Assembly (NCBI GenBank): GCA_903944345.1
Contig: CAJARJ010000012.1
Coordinates: forward strand, 4,266 to 68,265
Reading direction: 5' to 3'
DNA: 64,000 nt
From: Candidatus Omnitrophota bacterium
GTDB lineage: Bacteria > Omnitrophota > Gorgyraeia > Zapsychrales > Fredricksoniimonadaceae
The position numbers and the translations under genes were made by a program. The notes under the pieces are model-generated. The model saw only the letters and a list, made by a program, of their open reading frames with translations. It ran no database searches and was not told where the DNA came from. Positions 3,977 to 59,718 of this stretch are shown here, in pieces. The stretch's first letter is position 1. Every line of letters begins with the position of its first letter.

Positions 3977-5356
3977 CTAGAACGTCAACTCAAACTTTTC
4001 CTCGGGAGCCTTACGATCGCGTTCATCAAGCAGGGCGTTCAGGAGTTTCTCAACCAGTCGTATTGCCCCCATGTAACCAACATTAGGGAAATAGGAATGT
4101 CCAACCCGGTCCATGATAGGAAAACCAAAACGAATCAAAGGTATGTTTTCGTCCCGGGAAATATATTTTCCCCAGGTATTACCAATAAGAAGATCAACCG
4201 GCTCATTCTTGATCCACTGGTGCAAAAGAAACATGTCGGCCTGGGCCCCCTGACGAAATTTAGCCCCGGGCACTCCTTTGAGAACCTCCGCCATCCGCTC
4301 ATCGAAATACTTCCCAGGGGTTCCGGTGACCACATAAACCGGCTGCATCCCGATATCCACCAGAAACTCGCAAAGCGGGACTAACTGATCCGGATCGCCG
4401 TACAACGCCACTCGCTTATTATAAAAATACTGCTCGTTATCAGTCAGAATGTCGACCAGTCGACCGCGCTCCCGTTCAATGCTCTCGGGGACAGCTACAC
4501 CGGCGGCTTCGCTTAAGGTTTTAATAAAACGATCTGTGGCCGCAAGGCCAACAGGAATATCCAATTCGTATAGTTTGACCTTGCACTTGGCGTTCAACAA
4601 TTCGCCGGCGGGGACAGAAGCGTCATGACCAAGAGCCAGAGTGGCCAGACTGTCACCTGTAGCCCGAAGCTCGTCAATAGTTGTTCCTCCGGTTCCATAC
4701 ATATCAAACTGGCCATTTTGCGGACGATCCATAGTCTCGGACGTATCCGGGAACATAATGCTGGCAACTCCCATTTCAACAGCCAGCCTTTTGATCTCCC
4801 GCATATCGGAGGGTTCTACCCAGCCCGGTATAATATTGACCTTGTTGTCCTTTACCCCGGTCGTGAGTGAAAAATATTTCACCATGCTTTTGACCATATT
4901 GGCAAAACCGGTCACATGCGAACCGATATAGCTGGGCGTATTGGCATGAATAATATATTTGTCAGCAGGGATCTTGCCCTCTTCGGCTGCTTTGGCAATG
5001 ATCTGAACAATATCATCCCCTATAGTTTCGGAAAGGCAGGTTGTATGGACTGCTATGACATCCGGTTTATAAAGCGAAAAGATGTTTTCGACCGAAGTCA
5101 GCAGGTTGGCCTGTCCGCCAAAAACCGCCGAACCCTCAGTAAAGGAGCTGGTCGTCGCCATAACCGGTTCTTTAAAATGCCGTGTCAGCATGCTGCGATG
5201 ATACGAACAGCATCCCTGCGAACCATGGCTGTGCGGCAAACAATTATGGATTCCCAACGCCGCATACATCGCCCCGATTGGCTGACAGGTTTTGGCAGGA
5301 TTAATAGTAAGCGCTTCGCGCTCTTTGATATCTTTTGGTGTATGTCGAAGCAACAT
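3977..5356 (-). CDS. nifK: Nitrogenase MoFe protein beta subunit NifK
   Basis: Signature CQPIGAMYAALGIHNCLPHSHGSQGCCSYHRSM. The start is set to the ATG at 5356 (MLLRHTPKD...), which is preceded by AGGAGG and lies 9 nt after the nifD stop, rather than the upstream ATG at 5416 that would overlap nifD by 52 nt. Confidence 0.9.
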   Translation of the reverse strand: MLLRHTPKDIKEREALTINPAKTCQPIGAMYAALGIHNCLPHSHGSQGCCSYHRSMLTRHFKEPVMATTSSFTEGSAVFGGQANLLTSVENIFSLYKPDVIAVHTTCLSETIGDDIVQIIAKAAEEGKIPADKYIIHANTPSYIGSHVTGFANMVKSMVKYFSLTTGVKDNKVNIIPGWVEPSDMREIKRLAVEMGVASIMFPDTSETMDRPQNGQFDMYGTGGTTIDELRATGDSLATLALGHDASVPAGELLNAKCKVKLYELDIPVGLAATDRFIKTLSEAAGVAVPESIERERGRLVDILTDNEQYFYNKRVALYGDPDQLVPLCEFLVDIGMQPVYVVTGTPGKYFDERMAEVLKGVPGAKFRQGAQADMFLLHQWIKNEPVDLLIGNTWGKYISRDENIPLIRFGFPIMDRVGHSYFPNVGYMGAIRLVEKLLNALLDERDRKAPEEKFELTF

Positions 5357-5364
5357 ATGCCCTC

Positions 5365-6999
5365 CTAATTCGTCTCGTTGATAAAGACTGCTGCCAAAGG
5401 TTCCTGTTTGTGCCACGGAGCACGGATATGCTTCCAGACGCGAGTATTTAACATCCGCTCGACATCGCGATAGAAATTGATTGCGCCTTCAAAGGAGGCA
5501 TAGGGTCCGCCATAATCATAGTTATGCAGTTGCTTTAACGGCATCCCCATTTTCTGAATGACGTATTTCTCCTTTATTCCGGCACAAAATATATCCGGTT
5601 TGTATTTTTCGATGATCAGCTCGGTCTCAAAGTGATTAATATCATCAATGACCAGCGTACCGGCATCCATCTCGGGCATCATGCCTTTATAATCCCTGAA
5701 CTCGAAGCCCTTGGCGGCCATGGCATCCAACTGCTCTTTTGTTTTCCGGGCACGAAACTCGCTGGGGTGAGGTTCGACATGCAATTCTTCAATATTGCGG
5801 CTGTCCGCATCGACCTTGATATCCGGAATGACGACTCGTCCCTCATAATCGTCACGATGCGCAAATTCATAACCGGCAGCGAGCACTTTCATGCCCATTT
5901 CCTTGAATAGTTCCTGATAATGATGTGCCCGTGACCCACCCACAAAAAGCATGGCTGTTTTGCCTTCCACTCTTGGTCTGATAACGGCCAGCTCTGCTTT
6001 GACCTTTTCCATCTCTTCGGCAATAACACGTTCAACTTTCTTTTTGAGCTCGGCATCTTCGAAGTAATCGGCTATCTTGCGCAGTGACTTGGCGCTAGCC
6101 TCTGCACCAATGAAGTTCACCTTGAACCAGGGCACCCCGTATTTCTTTTCGATCATATCGGCAACATAATTAATGGAACGGTGGCACATAACAACAACAA
6201 GATCAGCCAGATGTGCAGAGGCAAACTGCTCGTAAGTGGAGTTACCACTAAAAGTTGCTACCAAAGTAATACCGCATTTGGTAAACAGTTCTTCCAATGC
6301 AAAAGCATCGCCGCCGATGTTATATTCACCCAGCATCGCAACCTTGAACTTGCCTTTGGGACAGGTAGTCCCTTTCCCAACCACATGTTTAAAAAGCTGA
6401 TTATTGGCAATATGATGGCCTGCGGACTGACTTACTCCTTTGTACCCCTCGCAACTAAAACCAAAGACATTGGCCCCTGTTTTCTCGCTCATCTCTCTGG
6501 AAACGGCATGAACATCATCTCCGATCAGTCCGATAGGACAGGTGGAAAAAACGCCAACAGCCTTGGGATGGAAAATATCAACAGCCTCTTCGATTGCTTT
6601 TTTGAGTTTCTTCTCACCGCCAAAGATGATGTTTTCATCCTGCATATCAGTTGAAAGACAATAGGTCATGAAATTGTCATCAGTTTCACTCTCGGGACGG
6701 GTCTGGTTTCGTCTGGTCAGCCAGGAATAGAAACCGCAGCCGATCGGTCCATGCGTAATATTAAGAATATTACGCGTCGGGCCGAGCACCACGCCCTTGC
6801 AGCCGGCATAAGAGCATCCGCGCTGGGTGATAATGCCGGGCAAAGTGCGCACATTGGCCTGGATTTCCTGCCTGGGCTCCTGCTCGGGTTCATTAACGAC
6901 AAACTGCTTTTGTCTTTTGCGCGCCGTCTTTGTGGGATAAGCGCTCAGCATTTCGTCTTTTACCGACTGTGCTGACTTGATATCGTTTTGTGCCGACAT
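5365..6999 (-). CDS. nifD: Nitrogenase MoFe protein alpha subunit NifD (long, anaerobe-type)
   Basis: 544 aa, with signature IITQRGCSYAGCKGVVLGPTRNILNITHGPIGCGFYSW and DENIIFGGEKKL. Confidence 0.92.
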   Translation of the reverse strand: MSAQNDIKSAQSVKDEMLSAYPTKTARKRQKQFVVNEPEQEPRQEIQANVRTLPGIITQRGCSYAGCKGVVLGPTRNILNITHGPIGCGFYSWLTRRNQTRPESETDDNFMTYCLSTDMQDENIIFGGEKKLKKAIEEAVDIFHPKAVGVFSTCPIGLIGDDVHAVSREMSEKTGANVFGFSCEGYKGVSQSAGHHIANNQLFKHVVGKGTTCPKGKFKVAMLGEYNIGGDAFALEELFTKCGITLVATFSGNSTYEQFASAHLADLVVVMCHRSINYVADMIEKKYGVPWFKVNFIGAEASAKSLRKIADYFEDAELKKKVERVIAEEMEKVKAELAVIRPRVEGKTAMLFVGGSRAHHYQELFKEMGMKVLAAGYEFAHRDDYEGRVVIPDIKVDADSRNIEELHVEPHPSEFRARKTKEQLDAMAAKGFEFRDYKGMMPEMDAGTLVIDDINHFETELIIEKYKPDIFCAGIKEKYVIQKMGMPLKQLHNYDYGGPYASFEGAINFYRDVERMLNTRVWKHIRAPWHKQEPLAAVFINETN

Positions 7000-14914: not shown

Positions 14915-16768
14915 CTAGATCCGGGTAGCCTGTTCCATAATTTCGACCATCCGTTTGACATAATCTGCCTTGGAAGCAAGCTCCCCTTCCATCAACTGGG
15001 CACTTTCGTAAAGCTGCACAATACATTTTTGGGAAATATCATCCGATTTATTAGCCAGGAAACGACGCGAAAGATTCTGGATGACAGGATGCTCCATATT
15101 GAGTTCCATAATTTTTTTTGAAGCCGGAACCTCATGTCCCATCATTTTCATCATACGCTCCATCTGGCGATCCATACCGGAACTTCCGGTCACCAGAGTG
15201 ACCGGAGAATCAACCAAACGACGGGAGACCCGAACATCCTCGACTTGTTCCTTGAGAGATTCCTTAAAAAGAGCCAGCAAGGACTCTGAAAGCTCATCCT
15301 GATCCTTTTTCTGGGCCTGCTCAAGCTCGATATCGCCCTTGTCGATGGCCTTAAGTGCTTTTTTATCGTATTCATGAATTGAGGGGACAATGAAGATATC
15401 GACTGGCTCAACAAGTAACAGCACTTCAAGCTCATATTTGCGGAAATATTCGAGATTGGGACTGCTTTCAACCTGCAGACGAGTTTCACCGGTAATATAA
15501 TAAATCTCTTTCTGCCCTTCTTTCATCCGGCTGACATAATCACGCAAAGAAGACATTTCTCCTGCCTTGCGGGTCGAAGTCTCAAACCGCAACAATTCGA
15601 TAAGTTTGTCCCGATTGGCGAAATCAGTATTAATACCGGTCTTGACCAGTGGACCGAAATTCTTGTAGAAAGTAAGATACTTTTCTGTCTCTTTTGTGGC
15701 CAGTTTCTGCAGCCACTGAAGTATTTTAGCGGTCAAAGCTGTACGGATTTTGTTCATTGCAGCTGAAGCTTGCACCACTTCGCGCGACACATTCAGGGGC
15801 AAATCGCTTGTATCCACAATGCCGCGGATAAACTGCAGATATTCCGGCAGAATATCCTTGCAGTCATCCATAATCATAATCTTGTTTGTATAAAGCTGAA
15901 CGGTCTTCTGCTGTTGCACGCGCATCAGGTCAAAATGCGCCTTGGCAGGAATAAACAAAAGCGCCTTGAACTCTGCGCCCGCCCCTTCAACCGACAACTG
16001 CAGAAATGACAGCGGATCTTCATAATCATTGGTAACAAACTTGTAGAATTCGTTACGCTCCTCGTCCTTGACATCGGCCTCGCTCTTGCGCCAGAGAGCT
16101 TCTACTGTATTAACTTTTTCTTTGCCTATCAAAATAGGGAAATCAGCAAAATTGGAATACTTCCTGATGATCTGCCGTAATTTATTTTCGTCGGCAAATT
16201 CCTGGGCTGTTTCCTTGAATTTGAAACTGATCCGGGTTCCACGCGCCTGTCTATCGGTTTCCTCGATAGTAAAACTTGACTCACCAGATGATGTCCAGCG
16301 ATACCCCTTGGAATTGAGGTCAAAATGCCTGGTTTCAATTGTCACCTCGTCAGTAACCATAAAAACCGAATAAAAACCGACGCCAAATTGCCCGATCAGA
16401 TCCGAAACATTACTCTTCTCTTCCCTGAGTTTCTTGAGATACTCCAGAGTCCCCGAGCGGGCCACGGTCCCGATATTCTGGGTAAGATCCTCAAAGGTCA
16501 TCCCGATACCGTTGTCCTCAATGCTGAAAGTTTTCGCGGCTGCATCAACCGTAATCCTGATTTCCAGCTCCTTGCCGTGATCAAGAATCTGGTTATCAGT
16601 CAGTTGACGATAACGAATCTTGTTAAGAGCATCCGAAGCATTGGAAACCAGCTCCCGAAGATAAACTTCCGGGTGAGTATAAAGAGAATGAATAATCAGC
16701 TGAAGCAACTGCTTCATTTCTGCCTTGTATTCGAAAGTCTGAGGTGTTTTGGTCGTAGTCATATCCAT
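14915..16768 (-). CDS. htpG: Molecular chaperone HtpG (Hsp90)
   Basis: 617 aa with the LVSNASDALNKIRY GHKL ATPase motif and full-length Hsp90 architecture. Confidence 0.92.
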   Translation of the reverse strand: MDMTTTKTPQTFEYKAEMKQLLQLIIHSLYTHPEVYLRELVSNASDALNKIRYRQLTDNQILDHGKELEIRITVDAAAKTFSIEDNGIGMTFEDLTQNIGTVARSGTLEYLKKLREEKSNVSDLIGQFGVGFYSVFMVTDEVTIETRHFDLNSKGYRWTSSGESSFTIEETDRQARGTRISFKFKETAQEFADENKLRQIIRKYSNFADFPILIGKEKVNTVEALWRKSEADVKDEERNEFYKFVTNDYEDPLSFLQLSVEGAGAEFKALLFIPAKAHFDLMRVQQQKTVQLYTNKIMIMDDCKDILPEYLQFIRGIVDTSDLPLNVSREVVQASAAMNKIRTALTAKILQWLQKLATKETEKYLTFYKNFGPLVKTGINTDFANRDKLIELLRFETSTRKAGEMSSLRDYVSRMKEGQKEIYYITGETRLQVESSPNLEYFRKYELEVLLLVEPVDIFIVPSIHEYDKKALKAIDKGDIELEQAQKKDQDELSESLLALFKESLKEQVEDVRVSRRLVDSPVTLVTGSSGMDRQMERMMKMMGHEVPASKKIMELNMEHPVIQNLSRRFLANKSDDISQKCIVQLYESAQLMEGELASKADYVKRMVEIMEQATRI

Positions 16769-34526: not shown

Positions 34527-37349
34527 TTACAGGCCCAAGAACACAAACAATGTTGTATCGGCCGGGCGGATATCAATTATGAAGGGAGCAAGCCCTGCAG
34601 CGAAACGGATTGCCTGGGCTTTCACGGGATCAAACACGATACTATTGCCAACTTCTTGAGTCAGAATCTGCAAACCTGATCTGTCAGGGGCAAGATCAAT
34701 GCCGCCTTTCTGATCCGGAGAAATCTTGGACTCCTCGTGGAGATGCACTCCGGAATCATCCACACTTATCCATGTATAAGTCTGCTCTCCCGGAGTATCG
34801 TGGCGACCCCATTCATTGCAGTTTGACCATGTGCCGGAGTTGACATACTGCCAGGCAGTCTCCCCCTCAAGAAGCATCCCCAGAAAACCCTCCCCCGGCT
34901 TCTGGGGTTCATGAGTATGGCCATAAACAATATAACGCTTCCATTGCTCAACAGGAATGTCCTTAAACAAATCCGGGTAAAGATACGGCAGAAGCTCGTC
35001 CCATAACTCGCCCAACTGTCTGATCCTTTTCTTCTGGGCACTAACCAGAAACAGCTGGAACCCGGAAACATTCTTTATCATAAAGGTCATAAAAGGGAAA
35101 AACATATCATTCTCGACAAACTGATTTAGAGTCCCCCAATGACGGTTTGACAACGCACTCATGAAGTTATCAAGGACACTTCCCCCTGCCTGTTTATTAT
35201 TAAACTTGTCGGGAACATGTCCGTGTTCAAAGTGCAGGATCTGACCTGCGGCAGGACGGACAATAACCACATACCGGCTGATAATCATTCTGTCTTTCCG
35301 GTCTTTATTCACCACTTCAAGAAGTTTATGTCCGATATCATCATTGAGGTCCGCTATCATTTTCTGTACATACAACACAGCCTTCGCCAGGGGCATCGAA
35401 AGGACAGAGTCGTCAAACCAGACATATCCTTCTTTGTCCATAACCGGGCCATAAGGCAGCTTCGCCCGGGTAAGCCTGGCAATATCTTTGGCCTTGGCCG
35501 CCCGGATAATGTTCTGAAGTTGTTGCGTGCGGGCAAAATCGGTAATCTCCAGATTTTGAGCCATCTTGGCCAGATGACGCCTCTTTTTTGCGAGACGTTC
35601 CTTGAGGATAACATCATCGTGATTACCTGCAACATAAAACACCTTGTCACAACGGGCTAAAGCTTCAAAGAAAACCTGATAGGACTGATAGACATCGCCG
35701 TAGCGATTCTTCTGAAGCTCGAGGATATCGCCATTGAGCACAACCACCTGTTTCTCTTCTGCCGCAATGCGCAACAGGTCAAGCAATTCCGGTAAACGCC
35801 CGGCAAAAGCGTCATGCGAATCTCCTGCCCCCAGGTGAATATCAGAAAGATTCAGAACCTCCTGATCGGTTCTGTAAATAAAGGTTCTTTGCTTTTTGCT
35901 CCAGCGCTTTACCTCCTCAAGCAAGGCCTCCGCCCGCTTGGCAAGCCTGGGATGCCGCTTCATTCGTTTGCCGAAAAAAGCATCCACTTTCCCGTTATGA
36001 ATGGAGAACAATATGGACTCCTTCTTATACTTCTCCTGCCAGAACCAGCCACCCGCAATCGCCTGCTGAATAAAACGTACGACTTGCTTCTTCTTGTCAC
36101 CGGTAACCCCCAGCCACTGGTCTTGCGATCCGTTATGAAAAAGCATCAAAGGGTTCTTTTCGGCAACCTTGCGCCAGGCTCTGGCTGGCGAAGAAGATAG
36201 TGCCTCGTCTGGCTCTGCCGACTGCGAAAAATCAGCCCTGTCGTCCGGAACAATTTGCATGGCCGTGCGAATGATCATGGTTCGCCCGGAAAACCCGGGA
36301 AGGGATACATCCTCGGAAAAAGGGCGAATATCCATAGCGGCGTCCACTCCCAGATCAAATCCTCCGGAAAAATATTTTCTCGGCAGTGGCTGACCGCCAG
36401 AAGAATCCGGATCTTCTGCAATATGCGTATAGGCACCCGTATTAAATCCCTGAGCATACCGCTTCCATATGTCATGCGGTTCTTGCGGATTGGCAATACT
36501 TACTCCGGCAGTTTTGGCGCGATCTGCATACTCCTGTGACAACACAGACTGCTTCATTTTGATCTTGTACCAGGCGGCAAGAATCAGGGAATGATACACC
36601 TGACGTAATTGGGCAAAATAGCTGCCTTCATTAACCTCTTTTTCTATAACCGGGATAACGACCTCGCGTAAAACAGAAACAGCCATAGAGGAAATTTCAG
36701 AAGTGGTATCAACGCTCGCAGCGTTATAATCCCTGTCAAGGATCACTTCAAGCCGGGCTTCGGCCACATACGCCGCTCCGGCATTTTCATAGACCACAGC
36801 TTTGCGGGGAACAATCCAGACCTTATTGATCAGCTCTAATGGAATATCGGTGGTGCCGTACTTTTGCTGTGCCAAAGCATATATCTTTTGCCAGAACTTC
36901 TCACCAGTCTTGTCTTGCGGGAACAACAAGGCCGTCGTTAACTGTTTAAGCAGATAATCCTGGGCCAGAAGATCGCGTCCCATCTCCGTCAGGCCGAAAG
37001 TTGGAGGAATAACACGATTTTCTTCGTACGGGCTCAGGTTAACCCACAGATCATGCTCGGGAATGGTCAAAGCGGCCAAAAAGTACTTAAGCAAACGGGT
37101 GGAGTCAACCCTGATATCATTAAATGAAATATTGGCATCCCCTTTATCAAGAATGAAATCAAACCTTAAGGGTTCATCCGGATAAATTTTTATGCCTTGA
37201 AGAAGGGGGGGATTAAGTGCCTGGCTTGGGGCCGACACCTGGCCGGGAAAAAGGTCGACTCCTGCCTCAAGAGGAGACAAGTTAACAGACACAAATACCA
37301 ACAAAATGATAAAAGTTAAGAACTTCATCACAAAAACCGGGAATGCCAA
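34527..37349 (-). CDS. Large secreted protein, paralog 1: novel conserved N-terminal domain, calcineurin-like metallophosphoesterase module and conserved C-terminal tail
   Basis: 940 aa with a signal peptide MKFLTFIILLVFVSVNLSPLEA. The N-domain motifs LRFDFILDKGD, WVNLSPYE, TEMGRDLLAQDY, GTTDIP, LAAWYK and RKYFSGGFD are shared with the 851-aa and frameshifted paralogs. The metallophosphoesterase motifs are SDIHLG, NGDILE, GNHD, HFEHGH and GHTHEP. The tail is GGIDL...AGLAPFIIDIRP. Confidence 0.8.
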   Translation of the reverse strand: MAFPVFVMKFLTFIILLVFVSVNLSPLEAGVDLFPGQVSAPSQALNPPLLQGIKIYPDEPLRFDFILDKGDANISFNDIRVDSTRLLKYFLAALTIPEHDLWVNLSPYEENRVIPPTFGLTEMGRDLLAQDYLLKQLTTALLFPQDKTGEKFWQKIYALAQQKYGTTDIPLELINKVWIVPRKAVVYENAGAAYVAEARLEVILDRDYNAASVDTTSEISSMAVSVLREVVIPVIEKEVNEGSYFAQLRQVYHSLILAAWYKIKMKQSVLSQEYADRAKTAGVSIANPQEPHDIWKRYAQGFNTGAYTHIAEDPDSSGGQPLPRKYFSGGFDLGVDAAMDIRPFSEDVSLPGFSGRTMIIRTAMQIVPDDRADFSQSAEPDEALSSSPARAWRKVAEKNPLMLFHNGSQDQWLGVTGDKKKQVVRFIQQAIAGGWFWQEKYKKESILFSIHNGKVDAFFGKRMKRHPRLAKRAEALLEEVKRWSKKQRTFIYRTDQEVLNLSDIHLGAGDSHDAFAGRLPELLDLLRIAAEEKQVVVLNGDILELQKNRYGDVYQSYQVFFEALARCDKVFYVAGNHDDVILKERLAKKRRHLAKMAQNLEITDFARTQQLQNIIRAAKAKDIARLTRAKLPYGPVMDKEGYVWFDDSVLSMPLAKAVLYVQKMIADLNDDIGHKLLEVVNKDRKDRMIISRYVVIVRPAAGQILHFEHGHVPDKFNNKQAGGSVLDNFMSALSNRHWGTLNQFVENDMFFPFMTFMIKNVSGFQLFLVSAQKKRIRQLGELWDELLPYLYPDLFKDIPVEQWKRYIVYGHTHEPQKPGEGFLGMLLEGETAWQYVNSGTWSNCNEWGRHDTPGEQTYTWISVDDSGVHLHEESKISPDQKGGIDLAPDRSGLQILTQEVGNSIVFDPVKAQAIRFAAGLAPFIIDIRPADTTLFVFLGL

Positions 37350-37370: not shown

Positions 37371-39926
37371 CTATTGGAAGATGGAAACAGCCGGATCAAC
37401 TATCCGGTCGATCCCGATAATCCGCGGTGAAAGTCCTGCTCTTACGGCCGGCAGAGTGGCTGAATCGATATTAAAATGAATCGGTCCACCATCATTAGCG
37501 ATATCCAGCTTCATATTGCGAGTGGACATATCAATACCACCCACCGGCTCAACCGCCTGACTCGCATCGGCTATTCTTTTATGCAAAACATCCTGACTCC
37601 AGTGATCCTTACTGTCTTTCACTGACCGATAATCGTTAGCGATGGCCTCAAGAGACTCTGCAATCGTTCTGTCCCACCCACCCCATGTGCCCGCAAACTC
37701 TGGAATCAATCCCCTTGAATATTTCAACGCCAGATCATACGGATTGGAATTTGCGTATTCAACAAGATCCGCATCGACAATCAAAACTTCCGGAGTCCCG
37801 TCCTGGGCGGACTGAAGAATAAAATTCGCAGCTCGGGGGTCATTTATCAGGATTCCTCTGCCTACAAGTGTACGGAACAGACGGATAAGAGCCTTGATAA
37901 TGTCCTCGTTCATTGTACCGGCGGCAATCACCTTATCCAGAGAGTCACCTGACATCCATTCCACAGCCAGAAGTTCTCTGCCATTGGTAGCCTTGATCAC
38001 TGCAACCCATGCCGGACCAACTCCCTCTTGTTCGACTATTCTGAAACCGTCTTTAATCTCCTTAAGAACAGTATCCATCCTGATCGGCGCCCGAATAGCC
38101 ATATGCTGGTTTTTATAGACATCATGGTTACCGCCAGATCCGACATATTCCTGCTGAACCCCTTTCATAATCAAGGTTTTTTCTCTTCCCTCAACCTGAA
38201 CGGGTTTCGACCGGCCCAGATGAATCAGCTGGGAGAACCGCTTGAGAGAAAAATTCATTAAAACACGCTGAAGCTGTCGTTCTAAAGAGGAATCATCTAT
38301 CTCCAGCACAACCTGATGAACACCAGGCCCCAGAGCAGGCAAAACCAGGTCATTAAGAAGAAGATAGTTCATCGGTTGTTGCCAATATTGACGCCAGAGT
38401 TCTTTATTGGTTATCTTCCTGATAATGATCATTTTCTCACCATACTGCCCGGCATACACGTCTTCGTTATCAGAAGACTTCAATAATCTGGTCTTCTCGA
38501 CATTATCTGTCACAAAACCACGTAAAAAACGCCGCCTTGTATTCTCAAGATCTTCATTAAAAGCAGCCACAGATGTCCCGAGCGAATCAAAAAAAGTCGC
38601 CATGCCCGGACTAGTGCGCTGATAAAGAAAGGTTTTAACAACTACCTGGCTTAACCTGAGAATATAATCCGGGGTAGCCTCTCTCCTTGAAATATCCGGT
38701 TTCTGCGCCATATCTGTCGATATATCCGAACGGCTGTCCTGAGGCTCTACCAAAACTCCTACTCTTATCAACCCTTGCGGATTATTAGCAAAAAGATTGC
38801 TGGAAATCTCCTGTAGGGATGCACGTTCCATCGCTTTATCGAAGTCCGGCGCAAACCCGCCCGAGAAATATTTGCGCAATAGCGGGTCACCCGAAAAAGG
38901 ATCCGCCTCTTCTTTGATATAACTAAAAACACCCTGCCTGAAAGCGGCCATGTATTGCTGGTAAATTTCATTAAGTACTTTGGGATCTCTAAGATTAACT
39001 CCATCCGTCTTGCCTTTGTCAACGTACTGATCGTACAAGATACCTTCCTTGACCTTGCGCTTGTACCATGCCGCCAACGCCATGGAGTAATAAATCTTGC
39101 GCAACAAGGCGAAACTTTCACCATCATTGATTTCTTTCTCGATAACAGGAAGAATAATTTCACGCAACCCGGGTTGAACCTGATTTTCTTCGGCCTCGTT
39201 ATGGACACTATTGCCAGATTGCACCTTCTCCGCCAGATAATCGCGCTCCAGCGCGACTTTCATCCTGGCATTCGCCAGCATGGCTATATTTCCATTCTCA
39301 TAAAACGCCGCTTTGTCCGGGCTGATCCAGACTTTATTGAAAACATCAAACGGAATATCAGTAGTTCCAAAGGCTTCCTGCGCACGCCGATAAACGTCAG
39401 TCCAGAATTTCTTCCCCAACGGTGCCTCGGGGTATACAAGAGAAGCCATAATCTGTTTGAGCATATAATCCTGAGCCAACAGGTCACGCCCCATCTCGGT
39501 ACGGGCAAAATTTTCACTAACAATCCGCTTATCTTCATAAGGAGAAAGGTTGACCCACTGCTCCTCTTCCGGAACAGTCATTGCTGCCAGAAAATATTTA
39601 ACCAGTCTCTCGGATTCAGCGGTCAGCGCCTCACCGGAAAGCAGCTCGTCTCCCTGATCCATAAAGAAATTAAAACGAAAAGGATTATTGATGTCCACCT
39701 GAATGCCAACCAGGCAAGCGGGCTTGAACCCGTGGCTGACATCAACCATAGATCCCGGCAACGGCAAGGCTACGCCTTCAATGGCATATACCGGCAAAGA
39801 ATTGATGAATAACACCTGAACAATAATAATATGAAATAGAATGCGAAACATCAGTTTCTCCCAAACATTCAAACTTTCAGAATTATGAAACTTACCACCC
39901 GATAATAAATATAATATATATATCAA
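37371..39926 (-). CDS. Large secreted protein, paralog 2: same N-terminal domain and C-terminal tail, with a putative kinase-like internal module
   Basis: 851 aa with a signal peptide. The N-domain is FRFNFFMDQGD, WVNLSPYEDKR, TEMGRDLLAQDYMLKQ, GTTDIP, LAAWYKRK and RKYFSGGFA. The internal region has a Gly-rich loop VGSGGNHDVY, ILINDPRAANFIL and LIVDADLV, which suggests a kinase-like fold. The tail is GGIDM...AGLSPRIIGIDR. Confidence 0.8.
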   Translation of the reverse strand: MIYILYLLSGGKFHNSESLNVWEKLMFRILFHIIIVQVLFINSLPVYAIEGVALPLPGSMVDVSHGFKPACLVGIQVDINNPFRFNFFMDQGDELLSGEALTAESERLVKYFLAAMTVPEEEQWVNLSPYEDKRIVSENFARTEMGRDLLAQDYMLKQIMASLVYPEAPLGKKFWTDVYRRAQEAFGTTDIPFDVFNKVWISPDKAAFYENGNIAMLANARMKVALERDYLAEKVQSGNSVHNEAEENQVQPGLREIILPVIEKEINDGESFALLRKIYYSMALAAWYKRKVKEGILYDQYVDKGKTDGVNLRDPKVLNEIYQQYMAAFRQGVFSYIKEEADPFSGDPLLRKYFSGGFAPDFDKAMERASLQEISSNLFANNPQGLIRVGVLVEPQDSRSDISTDMAQKPDISRREATPDYILRLSQVVVKTFLYQRTSPGMATFFDSLGTSVAAFNEDLENTRRRFLRGFVTDNVEKTRLLKSSDNEDVYAGQYGEKMIIIRKITNKELWRQYWQQPMNYLLLNDLVLPALGPGVHQVVLEIDDSSLERQLQRVLMNFSLKRFSQLIHLGRSKPVQVEGREKTLIMKGVQQEYVGSGGNHDVYKNQHMAIRAPIRMDTVLKEIKDGFRIVEQEGVGPAWVAVIKATNGRELLAVEWMSGDSLDKVIAAGTMNEDIIKALIRLFRTLVGRGILINDPRAANFILQSAQDGTPEVLIVDADLVEYANSNPYDLALKYSRGLIPEFAGTWGGWDRTIAESLEAIANDYRSVKDSKDHWSQDVLHKRIADASQAVEPVGGIDMSTRNMKLDIANDGGPIHFNIDSATLPAVRAGLSPRIIGIDRIVDPAVSIFQ

Positions 39927-46253: not shown

Positions 46254-46387
46254 TCATCGTTATGCCAGAAAAAATATCCCTGAAGATTGGTCGGTGGCAG
46301 GTTAAGTACCTGACGAGTATAATATATCCTACTCTATGTATTAACAAAGGCAAAAAGCCCATCCAGCAGTATGGACAGGCTTTGGAA

Positions 46388-48668
46388 TCAATAATTCTGT
46401 GTGTCACTAATTATTTTATACGGATCTATAGAGATAATAACCGGTGAGAATCCGGCAGCGTTCTGCATCTGCTGAAGCTGCTCAGAGGTCAGGTCTACCT
46501 CGATTGCAGTGCTATTATTCCGTGTCTCAAACTGGGCATTGTCGGGGTTCAGGTTAATACCACCGACTGCTTCCTGCCCAGGCAGAGAAGACAAGGGCTT
46601 TTCCATCAAAATTCCCCATTCTTCATTCATCCTCCGGGACAACTCCCAGGATTTCTGCAACAAACTTCCTCTATTGCGGCTCTTGAGCAGCGCAAGAACT
46701 TCTTCCGCATAAAATTGCTGATCCTTATCAAGAACAAGTGGTTTATACCCCAACATTCTATACAAAACAAAATTGGCTAATCCGTGAGGCAAAGTGCTGC
46801 CAATTACAAGAGAATCATAACCAGACTCGACTGCCAGTTCCTCGAGAGACTTAAGAATACTTTTAAATAATGCGCCCGCGTAAGGGAAAGATGGATACAT
46901 CTGTGACGGATACAACATGCGTTCCTCGTTTCGCAAGCGCTCCAGCAACAACTGCACGTTTGTATCATCGTCTTTCACCTTCAGAGCCGATTCAATTTGC
47001 GTTTGTCTCAGGCCCACGCTGGCCTCAGCAAAAGAAAGAAGAACTTTGCGATCCTGCCAGTCAAACTGCGGTAAAGCTTGCATAAACACGCCCTTTAACT
47101 GCTCCAAAACTTTCTCCAAATTACGCTTTCCCCACTCATCTGACCCCATCCAGATTTTCTGCGTCAGGATTACAGGTGACGAGGTGGTCATCTCCAGATG
47201 GGCCCGGCCGATGATTAACGAGTTGCGATCAAAACCACGACCATTCAATAAATTAAATTGGATAAAAACACCCTGATTATTCCTGTAGACAAGATCGTAA
47301 CTGTCGAAATCATCGGACTGGATTATCTCTCCCAGAAGCGTACGGGTTGTAAGCGTTCGCCCGGGGCCTCTTAAGATATCAACTTGCGGCTCATCATAAT
47401 ACTGCGACAATATCCCCTCCAGACGCTCTTTCTGACGTTCAATCAGCCGGCTAAACTGCTCTCTATCCGCTCTGGAACGTTTAACCTTCAGTTTGGGTAA
47501 AACAGACTCCTGAGCCGGATCTCCTGGCAGAACAGAGGTCTCTTCACGAACAATCACCAGTCTGTCAGCAGCACTCGGCCCCAGGTCAACCGGCCATACG
47601 TCCGATTTTACTGTCAGAGAACTATCCATTGCCCAATCAATACCGCCGGAAAAATATTTTCTGACCAACACTTCGTCAAACAATGCATCAGGTTCTTCCT
47701 TAATAAAATCATACGCGCCCTTGCGGAAGGAAACGACATAATCCTTCCAAATACGGTCCACTTCCCCGGGGTCTGGAATATTTATTCCGGCAACCTTATT
47801 CCGGTCAACGTAAACAGCGGACAATAATGATTGTCTGATCTTTCGTTTATACCAGGCGGCAAGAATCAAAGACTGATAAACCTGTCTGAGCGTCGCAAAG
47901 TTCTTACCTTCATTAACCTCTCGCTCCAGTTCAGGAATGACCATCGTACGTAAAGCTTCCTCCATCATCATATGATCCGGACTTGCGGTTTGGGGCACCG
48001 CACTTTTTTCTTGTGCCAGATAATCACTTTCCAGCTTAACCTCCAAGTGAGATTCGGTTACATAAGCCAGCCCCATCTCGCCATTCTCAAATACTACAGC
48101 TTTTCCAGGAACAATCCAAACCTTGTTCAACGTATCAAGCGGAATATCCGTAGTGCCATATTTTTCCAGGATCCGGGCGTAAATTCTCTTCCAGAATACT
48201 TTTCCAATCTCCCCTTCAGGGTTAAGAGTCTTTGCGGTGATTTGCTTGAGAAAATAATCCTGCACCAGTAAATCTCGCCCCATCACAGTCTGCCCAAAGG
48301 CTGGGGGAACGATGCGATTTCTTTCATATGGACTCAGGTTAACCCAGAGGTCATTTTCAGGAATTGTCAGGCTGGCAAAAAAAATATTTAATCAGACGGG
48401 TTGATTCACTTTTGATCTGGTCATTAGTAATTCTTTCATCGCCTTTATCAAGAATAAAATCAAACCTGAGCGGATTTCGAGGATATACCCTAATTCCTTT
48501 TAATACAGGCGGATTGAACGCCGGACTTAAAGACACCACCTGACCACCGGGAGGAGTCAAAATCGGCTCCCCGGCATACAGAATAACTGGGCTCAAAACA
48601 TGTGCCAGAACTATCCAAATGATGACAAATTTTCTTAGAAACATGAAGGAAAGATACCTGACCAACAC
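46388..48668 (-). pseudogene. Large secreted protein, paralog 3: frameshifted in an A8 homopolymer, with its 3' end overwritten by an element terminal repeat
   Basis: The N-terminal ORF 48357-48668 (signal peptide, then LRFDFILDKGDE...KYFFCQPDNS-stop) and the ORF 46388-48286 (MMGRDLLVQDY...) are joined by a +1 shift inside a run of 8 A (48377-48384). With 7 A the reading is KYFFASLTIPENDLWVNLSPYERNRIVPPAFGQTVMGRDLLVQDY, collinear with paralogs 1 and 2. The last 9 codons (KIISDTQNY-stop) are encoded by the element TIR at 46391-46415. Confidence 0.7.
46391..46415. repeat. Solo terminal inverted repeat of the 133-bp element (inverted left end)
   Basis: AATTCTGTGTGTCACTAATTA matches 21 of 21 of the reverse complement of the element's left end (AATTAATTAGTGACACACAGAATT). 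No internal element sequence follows. Confidence 0.6.
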
Positions 48669-59103: not shown

Positions 59104-59718
59104 ATGGATAATGCATTAACGCCCCGGCCAAAACAGAAACGCAATCGCGAAGACAGTAAACAACGCATTCTAAAAGCGGCTTTGGAGACTTTTTCTGAGG
59201 TCGGCTATGATGCGGCTACAACGAAAATGATTTCACTGCGGGCTGGATTAAACGAATCACTAATTCAGCGTTATTTTCAAAGCAAATTCAACTTGCTGGT
59301 AGAAGTGACCCATTCCTCTATGGAAGCCATGCGATTAAAGACACCCCCACCCCCTGCCGCCACACCGGAAGAGGAAATCTGTAACTTCCTGATTAACAAA
59401 CTAGAACACGATTCTCAAAATCAAGGATTCTTAAAGATTCTTTTTTCCAGGCTTCTCATTGACCCGGAGGTTCGAACTGAATTAAAGAAACGTCAGGGAG
59501 GAATGCCGCCAAACTTATTTTTAAAAGATCGCCTCGTAGCATTCCAAAAAAAAGGGCAAATAAGAAATGACATCAACATCGACACTTTAATACAATCTTT
59601 ATTAGCCCAGTCCATCTCTGCCGGTCTATTTGAACGAATATTCTTTGAGAAAGATATTGAAACCTGCAAAGAGCAGTTTCGACAATTTACAAAAAATATT
59701 GTTAAAGGGATTTGTTAG
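59104..59718 (+). CDS. TetR-family transcriptional regulator
   Basis: 204 aa with the N-terminal HTH (ILKAALETFSEVGYDAATTKMISLRAGLNESLIQRYFQSK), divergent from tolC-RND. Confidence 0.85.
   Translation: MDNALTPRPKQKRNREDSKQRILKAALETFSEVGYDAATTKMISLRAGLNESLIQRYFQSKFNLLVEVTHSSMEAMRLKTPPPPAATPEEEICNFLINKLEHDSQNQGFLKILFSRLLIDPEVRTELKKRQGGMPPNLFLKDRLVAFQKKGQIRNDINIDTLIQSLLAQSISAGLFERIFFEKDIETCKEQFRQFTKNIVKGIC

Follow-up and report, generated by a model that had tools for sequence, protein, structure and literature searches.

A frameshift inside an eight-base T run splits a gene of an exported-protein family in Omnitrophota, a probable young pseudogene

Introduction

Pseudogenes produced by a frameshift in a homopolymer are an already known kind of event. 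Slippage frameshift pseudogenes at short bacterial homopolymers have a single-base indel, a premature stop a few codons on, intact paralogs, and fixation in the sampled population, and the gene that we present here, paralog 3, is like them in each of these respects. It is unlike them in being apparently so freshly broken that neither a second lesion nor a clear relaxation of constraint is visible, and in its host, an uncultured member of the Omnitrophota, where we read the gene from its sequence alone. The Omnitrophota are a phylum suspected of host-dependent lifestyles.

Contingency loci are the poly-G, poly-C and long poly-A/T tracts in genes for surface proteins of Neisseria, Haemophilus, Campylobacter and Helicobacter. 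Paralog 3 resembles these loci in having a homopolymer early in the gene of an exported, multi-copy, variable protein, with a frame that one base can switch. It departs from them in that its tract is short (A/T 8), is not length-polymorphic in assemblies and is not conserved, and in that there is no enrichment of such repeats across the genome or the family. Slippage during the transcription of A/T runs serves to rescue or regulate genes in Shigella type III secretion (mxiE and the spa genes), Thermus dnaX, and IS elements (reviewed in PMC5009743). In paralog 3, the A/T run at the exact junction could similarly give a minority of frame-restored mRNA and protein, but here the site is unconserved, is without stimulators, stands at the lower length limit, and carries no sign of selection.

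The family to which paralog 3 belongs has its closest described counterpart in the polymorphic toxins and effectors, which join a conserved N-terminal trafficking domain to a variable C-terminal domain (PMC3482391). Both have a conserved N-module, diverse enzymatic cargos, many copies, and turnover by disruption. In the Omnitrophota family, unlike in polymorphic toxins, the variable domain is central, lying between the N-domain and a 58-aa C-tail, no known trafficking domain or secretion-system marker is matched, and most cargos have the folds of ordinary enzymes (methyltransferase, kinase, HAD, GNAT, phosphoesterase) rather than being classic toxins.

Results

A frame break within a run of eight Ts

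The window is the whole stretch of 64,000 nucleotides of a Candidatus Omnitrophota bacterium that we analysed. All coordinates below refer to it, and all the features are on the minus strand.

34527..37349, minus strand: paralog 1, an intact comparator of 940 aa, with N-domain, calcineurin-like phosphoesterase cargo and C-tail
37371..39926, minus strand: paralog 2, an intact comparator of 851 aa, with N-domain, weak ABC1 kinase-like cargo, and C-tail without the FLGL ending
48357..48668, minus strand: upstream ORF including the alternative GTG start at 48668; 103 aa, ending in ...STRLIKYFFCQPDNS and a stop
48357..48644, minus strand: 5' fragment of paralog 3, which starts at the ATG at 48644 and is 95 aa long; public assemblies annotate it as a gene of that length
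48377..48384, minus strand: T8 homopolymer (A8 on the plus strand), where one added base interrupts the frame between Y95/F96-F97 and A98
46388..48376, minus strand: 3' part of paralog 3 in the +1 frame, with the remaining N-domain, the cargo, the C-tail and the stop at 46388-46390
46388..48286, minus strand: downstream ORF of 632 aa; gene callers give 625-632 aa from an internal GTG/ATG at about 48286
47633..48644, minus strand: N-domain of about 340 aa, interrupted by T8 and ending in RKYFSGGID
46565..47515, minus strand: variable cargo domain of 317 aa, a rare module of about 290 aa with a probable GNAT/acetyltransferase-like fold
46391..46564, minus strand: C-terminal tail, GGINLNPDN...AAGFSPVIISIDP followed by YKIISDTQNY, covering the first 48 of the 58 profile positions
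46344..46383, minus strand: terminator-like hairpin, a 12-bp stem and then a T-rich tail, beginning 5 nt past the stop codon

The plus strand at 48377-48384 is exactly AAAAAAAA, which makes a T8 on the coding strand, where the codons over the tract are AAA TAT TTT TTT TGC CAG CCT GAC AAT TCC TGA. This run divides paralog 3, which lies between a BON-domain gene and a Mem_trans gene, into a fragment of 95 aa and an ORF of 632 aa. The fragment, made up of a Sec-type signal peptide (MFLRKFVIIWIVLAHVLSPVILYA/GE) and about 70 initial residues of the N-domain, ends at an out-of-frame TGA (48357-48359); the ORF has a near-identical public match (P0001, 99% identity, 631 aa). When one T is deleted, an open frame of 759 aa results (751 or 759 aa, depending on the start), which reads ...LIKYFFASLTIPENDLWVNLSPYERNRIVPPAFGQTVMGRDLL... 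and is collinear with paralogs 1 and 2 and with more than 100 relatives. By tblastn, the repaired paralog 3 is 52% identical to paralog 1 and 44% identical to paralog 2 over approximately 350-380 aa. The alignment has invariant residues on both sides of the tract (K94, Y95, F96, A98, T101, P103, E104 and W108-E115). Because K-Y requires the upstream frame, A-S-L-T requires the downstream frame, and the downstream frame is closed by a TGA just 5' of AAA TAT, the shift must fall within the Ts.

The frame break in paralog 3 is real, and it is located inside T8. This confirms what the original prediction had proposed, a gene split within an eight-base run for which seven bases instead of eight give back a continuous protein collinear with its two paralogs. 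Its term, a +1 frameshift, is correct as to the frameshift, and is put more exactly as a +1 insertion in the coding-strand T run relative to the intact frame. For runs of other lengths, T7 or T10 would give a full-length protein (predicted 751 and 752 aa), and T8, T9 and T11 would give stubs of 92-96 aa (predicted 92 aa for T9). The predicted junction peptide is YFFASLTIPENDLWVNLSPYER in the rescued frame and YFFCQPDNS in the truncated one. Runs of A8/T8 occur 3 times in the 64-kb window, compared with 13.2 +/- 4.5 in dinucleotide shuffles; what is non-random about this T8 is its exact coincidence with the frame break, and not that such a tract occurs.

A family of exported proteins with variable cargos

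Members of the family have a signal peptide, an N-domain, a variable cargo, and the C-tail. Four motifs mark the N-domain of about 340 aa (WVNLSPYE, MGRDLL.QDY.LKQ, NKVWI and RKYFSGG), and all four are found in the repaired paralog 3, which is 44-72% identical to its more than 100 relatives. The C-tail, with consensus GGIDL...ApGf.PvIinIqP...FLGl over about 58 aa, is present in paralogs 1, 2 and 3. Sequence searches of Pfam, NCBIfam and PDB return no match for the N-domain; its AF2 model is of low confidence (pLDDT 61), and Foldseek with that model finds no fold match. An earlier homologue search with the cargo of paralog 3 by itself gave no match, missing even the near-identical P0001. A phmmer search against 1.84 billion representatives gives 12 matches to the cargo at 29-35% identity, several of which also carry the N-domain motif, the C-tail, or both. 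The AF2 model of this cargo (pLDDT 80.8, pTM 0.78) has almost exclusively acetyltransferases as its best Foldseek matches, all weak (E of at least 8e-3), and as modelled it is a probable GNAT/acetyltransferase-like fold.

The family comprises over 2,700 protein clusters, is seen in more than 597 genomic stretches, and has many copies per MAG. Our searches of the Omnitrophota literature found no description of it, and we define it here as a family that appears, from the sequences collected, to be Omnitrophota-specific and undescribed in the literature searched. Other MAGs also have split copies, about 4 in some 43 complete copies (L014, L021, L030 and L073), or about 10%. Such frequent splitting fits with birth-and-death turnover. 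Together, the copy number, the swappable cargos and the roughly 10% of disrupted copies suggest that the exported repertoire may evolve by rapid birth and death. The frameshift in paralog 3 matters little in itself, and its value is indirect, in the attention that it draws to this large family.

The same run in public assemblies

We reached independent copies of the T8 locus through look-ups of the exact proteins; pattern scans with the flanks of the tract returned no match in the metagenome and genome contig collections, from both of which the strain is absent. All 10 of the retrieved loci (L001-L005 and L087-L091) have T8. They come from 8 assemblies, namely JGI 3300045671 and 3300045717; ENA ERZ18659518, ERZ18659709, ERZ18659942, ERZ27313537 and ERZ27313539; and Logan ERR4221774. 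The assembly types comprise MEGAHIT-style k141 contigs, JGI, BUCK21 scaffolds and Logan, and the loci include 3 genotypes that differ by SNPs. The exact 95-aa product of T8 is on 11 + 1 contigs, with 12-13 contig records overall, while among approximately 15 billion proteins there is none that a T7, T9 or T10 would give. In the 90% cluster of the 3' ORF, all members are 625 or 631 aa long, apart from one fragment of 72 aa. Across the 8 assemblies and 12-13 contigs we see no variation in tract length, at the resolution of consensus assemblies, which would hide minority lengths. As a point of annotation, the public 95-aa and 625/631-aa "hypothetical proteins" are the halves of one disrupted gene.

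To compare related strains was a proposal of the original prediction, for which a shared interruption of uniform length would speak against phase variation. At the level of assemblies, all the related ones carry the same interrupted gene, without length variation.

A probable young pseudogene

We think it probable that a T7 to T8 frameshift, recent and now fixed, has made paralog 3 a young pseudogene of a birth-and-death family. The pseudogene reading follows from the lack of tract-length variation and from the same interruption being present in all related assemblies. The lesion is taken to be young because it is the sole disruption and the remaining gene still resembles a functional family member. 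What we infer is that the mutation went from T7 to T8, that the gene lost its function, and that this happened recently. In the proposed course of events, the T run would have its origin in paralog 3 encoding K-Y-F-F-A (TAT TTT TTT G, a T7) where the family norm is K-Y-F-L-A. No relative examined has so long a T run at this site, and a T7 there would be a likely mutational hotspot. Replication slippage in this short run would have added one T, and the T8 would then have been fixed in the population. With T8, translation would end seven codons on and leave a 95-aa signal-peptide fragment, the residual 630 codons would be without the signal peptide and the first third of the N-domain, and this family member would be inactive.

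The rest of the gene is well preserved. We see no second lesion in paralog 3, and its stop codon and terminator-like hairpin are intact. Against the tail HMM, the C-tail scores 65 bits (positions 1-50), compared with about 40 for paralogs 1 and 2. All that paralog 3 misses of the tail is its last 10 or so residues, with the FLGL ending, which the intact paralog 2 likewise lacks. The cargo keeps 16/16 of its invariant columns. The original prediction had the gene losing its native 3' end, and found decay favoured on that ground. Pseudogenization is indeed the best reading, and the argument from a lost 3' end has to be dropped: C-tail, stop and terminator are all there, the cargo recurs in other members, and the middles of the three paralogs differ as is expected of a family whose cargo domain varies.

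We considered several possible signs of decay and rejected each one. A second 3' lesion, in the form of a 33-nt in-frame insertion with a stop that displaces an FLGL remnant (FQSLSILLDGL) past the stop, is a poor candidate, as removing the insertion gains only 5.6 bits; the presumed remnant is the stem of the terminator-like hairpin, and not a displaced FLGL. An excess loss of conserved residues is not seen either. At the 108 N-domain columns with at least 95% conservation, paralog 3 has 9 deviations, fewer than the 15 and 18 of the intact paralogs, a comparison that speaks neither for nor against decay. All 7 of the SNPs within paralog 3 are nonsynonymous, two of them at the family-invariant R240 and E250. 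A dN/dS-type argument from these SNPs is too weak, in that the sole flanking SNP is also nonsynonymous and 5 of the 7 lie clustered within 67 bp of one contig. As far as the sequence goes, there is, apart from the SNPs, no positive evidence of relaxed constraint on paralog 3.

Phase variation, recoding and artefact

An alternative that we judge unlikely is a phase-variable contingency switch, in which slipped-strand mispairing would toggle a secreted protein between ON (T7 or T10) and OFF (T8 or T9), with OFF in the majority in all sampled lakes. A signal peptide, a multi-copy family and a variable cargo do describe the type of gene that is often phase-variable. A one-base change in the homopolymer restores the full ORF, paralog 3 is otherwise undamaged, and a family member in a different MAG (L021) is split at a G11 tract. 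Against the switch stand the uniform T8 of the 8 assemblies and 12-13 contigs, with no T7, T9 or T10 product in the protein collection, and the comparison with relatives. In 73 relatives, the homologous codons have runs of T2-T6 and never of T7 or longer. KYFLA is the sequence at the site in 64 of the relatives, and KYFFA occurs in only one other, with T6. The best 80 genome loci match in one frame across the site, with no run there as long as 7. The collections hold no protein with the cargo of paralog 3 at intermediate divergence (the next best is 69% identical, in the N-domain only), so the ancestral tract length is not directly readable.

Nor do long homopolymers seem to be favoured in this setting. 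The window has fewer A/T8 runs than expected (3 against 13.2), and the family genes (249 kb), with 20 A/T8 and 9 G/C runs of at least 7, are not enriched over their flanks (222 kb), with 23 A/T runs of at least 8 and 5 G/C runs of at least 7. Slippage is far weaker in A/T runs of 8 than in the tracts of established contingency loci, which are G/C runs of at least 8 or longer A/T runs, and a tract of this length would be among the shortest for a phase-variation switch. The original prediction's view of such tracts as "classic" switches is thus overstated for an A/T 8 tract conserved in 0 of 73 relatives.

Quite unlikely as well is a gene kept functional by recoding, either through U7 transcripts that arise when RNA polymerase slips on the A8 template or through a ribosomal +1 shift on UUU-UUU-U, so that some full-length protein is made by programmed or leaky rescue. 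The P-site tRNA-Phe could re-pair perfectly in the +1 frame on the U8 (UAU UUU UUU U), the 8-nt A/T run at the frame junction is a possible site of RNA polymerase slippage, and the 630 downstream codons are wholly open and family-like. With 8 bases, the run stands at the lower limit for efficient slippage by the polymerase. Restoring the frame requires a one-base deletion or a two-base insertion, and the site is conserved in no paralog or relative. The elements expected to stimulate recoding are missing too: the run with its surroundings and 3' side (111 nt) is less stably folded than shuffled sequences (z = +2.05), which leaves no 3' stimulatory structure, no Shine-Dalgarno-like element is found 5' of the run, and the 0-frame A-site codon is UGC (Cys) and not a stop. 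Slippage at A/T runs does have precedents (PMC5009743), and the U8 run could allow low-level rescue by RNA polymerase or ribosome slippage.

We give very little probability to the more far-reaching reading that T8 acts as an ON/OFF or leaky-recoding switch in a member of a hitherto undescribed, Omnitrophota-wide family of exported proteins that would display or deliver interchangeable enzyme cargos set between the N-domain and the C-tail. If it were such a switch, an uncultured and possibly host-dependent phylum would vary its effector repertoire through homopolymer slippage, and the G11-split copy in the other MAG (L021) would be a second example.

The option of a sequencing or assembly artefact, with a true T7 genome and an intact gene, which the original prediction had also raised, is effectively refuted and has almost no probability left: indel errors are known to occur in homopolymers and only one base is at stake, but the identical T8 comes from 10 loci in 8 assemblies of various samples and pipelines, SNP-distinct genotypes included, the T7 product is nowhere in the protein collection, and, as internal controls, other 8-base runs of the window are in frame within conserved genes, the A8/T8 at 15112-15119 being within the domain match of htpG (HSP90).

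The third A8/T8 of the window is at 59546-59553.

The frame break in paralog 3

The AAAAAAAA run occupies window positions 48377-48384 within a minus-strand gene, paralog 3, where the coding strand reads AAA TAT TTT TTT TGC CAG CCT GAC AAT TCC TGA (T8 on this strand). Two open reading frames meet at the run:

48357..48668, minus strand: upstream ORF, 103 aa from GTG or 95 aa from the ATG at 48644, with its stop seven codons past the run
46388..48286, minus strand: downstream ORF, 632 aa, in the +1 frame

Removing one T gives an unbroken 759-aa frame (751 aa counted from the ATG) that contains ...RLIKYFFASLTIPENDLWVNLSPYERNRIVPPAFGQTVMGRDLL.... By tblastn, the window has two further copies, paralog 1 at 34527..37349(-) with 52% identity and paralog 2 at 37371..39926(-) with 44%, identities that span the first ~350-380 residues. 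In the three-paralog alignment, invariant residues flank the run (K94 Y95 F96 before it; A98 T101 P103 E104 W108-E115 after it). The upstream frame alone gives K-Y, the downstream frame alone gives A-S-L-T, and the downstream frame is shut by a TGA immediately 5' of AAA TAT, so the frame change is confined to the T run. The original prediction had paralog 3 split at this A8 of the forward strand, with seven bases instead of eight restoring a continuous protein collinear with paralogs 1 and 2; the 759-aa frame, the tblastn matches and the alignment bear out both points.

The run by itself is no statistical oddity. A8/T8 runs are strongly depleted in the window: dinucleotide shuffles give 13.2 +/- 4.5, the window itself three. 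Besides the paralog 3 run, these are:

15112-15119: in frame within the HSP90 domain match of htpG
59546-59553: within the open frame of a 204-aa ORF

The surrounding genes are ordinary housekeeping genes (glycogen enzymes, MdoG, a family-2 glycosyltransferase, HtpG, pyruvate kinase, AcrB and a MacAB-like ABC exporter).

A modular family of exported proteins

The repaired protein has matches in more than 2,718 protein clusters, practically all of which derive from MAGs of Candidatus Omnitrophota, and the similarity extends only over its first 40-60%. Scanning the GTDB species representatives, we find more than 597 stretches with family matches, of which we kept 80 loci from Omnitrophota-type MAGs (some deposited as 'uncultured Planctomycetales'). 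MAGs carry many copies each, JABDGZ01 for instance at least 9. One architecture, in which a variable middle domain (the cargo) separates two conserved parts, is common to the three paralogs of the window and almost every relative:

N part: Sec-type signal peptide and a ~340-aa N-domain ending RKYFSGG-x-D
C-tail: ~58 aa, GGIDLtpa...LqqlqnApGfvPvIinIqPl..l..FLGl

In the family, the N-domain ends RKYFSGG(I/V)D and the C-tail begins GGIDL; in paralog 3 these two places lie at window ~47633-47660 and 46540-46564. Pfam domains in the C-terminal parts of relatives include methyltransferases, kinases, HAD, GNAT, glycosyltransferase, PP2C, DnaJ, TPR/HEAT, adenosine deaminase, guanylate kinase and others; a phosphoesterase is also among the cargos. 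Neither the N-domain nor the C-tail has a sequence match in Pfam, NCBIfam or PDB. The AF2 model of the N-domain has low confidence (pLDDT 61), and a fold search with it returns no match. To judge from the sequences, the cargo seems to interrupt a formerly unbroken ...YFSGGIDL..., so the N-domain and C-tail may form one fold. The literature searched holds no description of the family. This by-product, an apparently undescribed exported Omnitrophota family with modular cargo, outweighs the frameshift in interest.

Cargo and 3' end of paralog 3

The paralogs differ in their 3' parts because the family cargo is modular. The relevant features of paralog 3 are:

46565-47515, minus strand: cargo, a rare domain of ~290 aa
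46391-46420, minus strand: last ten codons (YKIISDTQNY)
46388-46390, minus strand: stop codon

Searching 1.84 billion representatives exhaustively with phmmer gives 12 cargo matches at 29-35% identity over ~290 aa. The search recovers P0001 (a cluster of near-identical public copies of the downstream ORF) and 11 relatives. A separate homologous-protein search with the 340-aa cargo region found no match and missed even P0001, in which the query is present at ~100% identity. Several of the matching proteins also have the N-domain motif, the C-tail or both, and the cargo there usually follows a SAM-methyltransferase domain. Paralog 3 keeps 16/16 invariant cargo-domain columns, and the AF2 model is confident (pLDDT 80.8, pTM 0.78); its closest structural neighbours are almost all acetyltransferases (GNAT/p300-like), a weak but consistent signal (E >= 8e-3). 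The middle region is a genuine but rare domain. Its nearly invariant YDGRS motif is changed to LNGRG in paralog 3.

A profile of 93 family tails scores the paralog 3 tail at 65 bits and those of the intact paralogs 1 and 2 at about 40. The paralog 3 tail is missing only the last ~10 profile positions (..FLGL), as is paralog 2. A terminator-like hairpin, with a stem of 12 bp and T-rich sequence behind it, begins 5 nt after the stop codon. The 3' end is native; the claim that the gene had lost it is not supported, given the tail score, the stop codon followed by the hairpin, and the genuine cargo domain. The last ten codons stand in place of the ..L..FLGL ending and include a small inverted repeat, ATAATT-N12-AATTAT. 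An FLGL-like peptide in frame past the stop is accounted for by the hairpin, and we rejected it as a remnant of the family ending.

A fixed insertion and a probable young pseudogene

Members of P0001 are 625/631 aa long, plus one 72-aa fragment, and none has the full-length form. We compared the DNA of all accessible contigs carrying the locus (L001-L005 and L087-L091), from eight assemblies: JGI 3300045671 and 3300045717; ENA ERZ18659518, ERZ18659709, ERZ18659942, ERZ27313537 and ERZ27313539; and Logan ERR4221774. Over up to 7.9 kb, these contigs match the window at 99.8-100% identity; three SNP-distinct genotypes are among them, and every contig has exactly T8. An exact-sequence look-up places the 95-aa T8 product on 11 contigs, and one further contig has the S26R variant. 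Among about 15 billion proteins there is none of the products that T7 (751 aa), T9 (92 aa) or T10 (752 aa) would give. The htpG 8-mer serves as an internal control and keeps frame inside its domain match. Since T8 is identical in eight assemblies, the T7 product is missing and the control is in frame, a sequencing or assembly error, as the original prediction had allowed, is effectively excluded.

We conclude that a real, population-fixed T7-to-T8 insertion truncates paralog 3 after 95 residues. An intact T7 ancestor would have gained one T, cutting the product. With T8 real and its length invariant among assemblies, the pseudogene option is the most likely reading, and paralog 3 is probably a young pseudogene. 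The frameshift phenomenon is ordinary and already known.

Decay signals are weak. All 7/7 SNPs inside paralog 3 are nonsynonymous, and so is the lone flanking SNP. Those inside are S26R, T441S and a cluster within 67 bp of contig L001. The cluster (JGI 3300045671 versus window 47883-47950) comprises five substitutions, which read A>T or C>A in the coding sense; the family-invariant R240 and E250 are among the residues hit. It may be one event or an artefact, and recombination, decay specific to the strain and faulty assembly are all candidate sources of the patch. At the 108 N-domain columns conserved at >=95%, paralog 3 has 9 deviations, versus 15 in intact paralog 1 and 18 in intact paralog 2. 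Among about 43 complete family copies in other MAGs, about 4 are disrupted:

L021 (CAIOPG010000018.1, Omnitrophica bin Umea1p4_bin-199): broken into two frames precisely at G11, nt 4309-4319
L030: three pieces, with breaks near nt 4443-4470 (with A7) and 5143-5156
L073: split at 5928-5958
L014: in-frame stop at ~2906

The G11 run codes for EIGGGGGDL, and the C-tail falls in the second of the two frames. Either the run is a true contingency tract of long poly-G or the assembly is wrong at the poly-G. The other three consist of 2-3 consecutive ORFs, the last piece holding the C-tail. With the usual MAG-quality caveat, the disrupted copies fit rapid birth-and-death turnover.

Phase variation and recoding

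That T8 is a contingency switch is unlikely. Populations may hold a minority of T7 cells, tract lengths being known from consensus assemblies; those assemblies show no variation, and T7, T9 and T10 products are missing. Related genomes with the same interrupted gene and a constant tract, the check set beforehand, are what we find among them. The K-Y-F-x-A codons of 73 relatives have T runs of 2-6, with 0/73 reaching 7 or more; 64/73 encode KYFLA, and only one encodes KYFFA, with T6. By this comparison, the tract is not a family feature. The T7 ancestor (TAT TTT TTT G) would have had the longest run at the site, which suggests a mutational hotspot and not a selected switch. Long homopolymers are no commoner within family genes (20 A/T8 and 9 G/C>=7 in 249 kb) than in their flanks (23 A/T>=8 and 5 G/C>=7 in 222 kb). 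In five family genes of other MAGs, T8 occurs right at the 5' end of the gene or shortly ahead of it (start/signal-peptide region):

L026, nt 3005
L031, nt 3046
L060, nt 2981
L061, nt 3009
L070, nt 3025

Leaky or functional recoding at U8 is improbable as well. tRNA-Phe could re-pair in +1 on U8, and for slippage of RNA polymerase an A/T 8-mer is marginal (such mechanisms are reviewed in PMC5009743). However, the A-site codon UGC is neither a stop nor evidently slow, no SD-like element is found upstream of the run, the 111 nt around and downstream of it fold worse than shuffles (z = +2.05), and no relative conserves the T8 frameshift arrangement. Adventitious low-level rescue of paralog 3 is possible.
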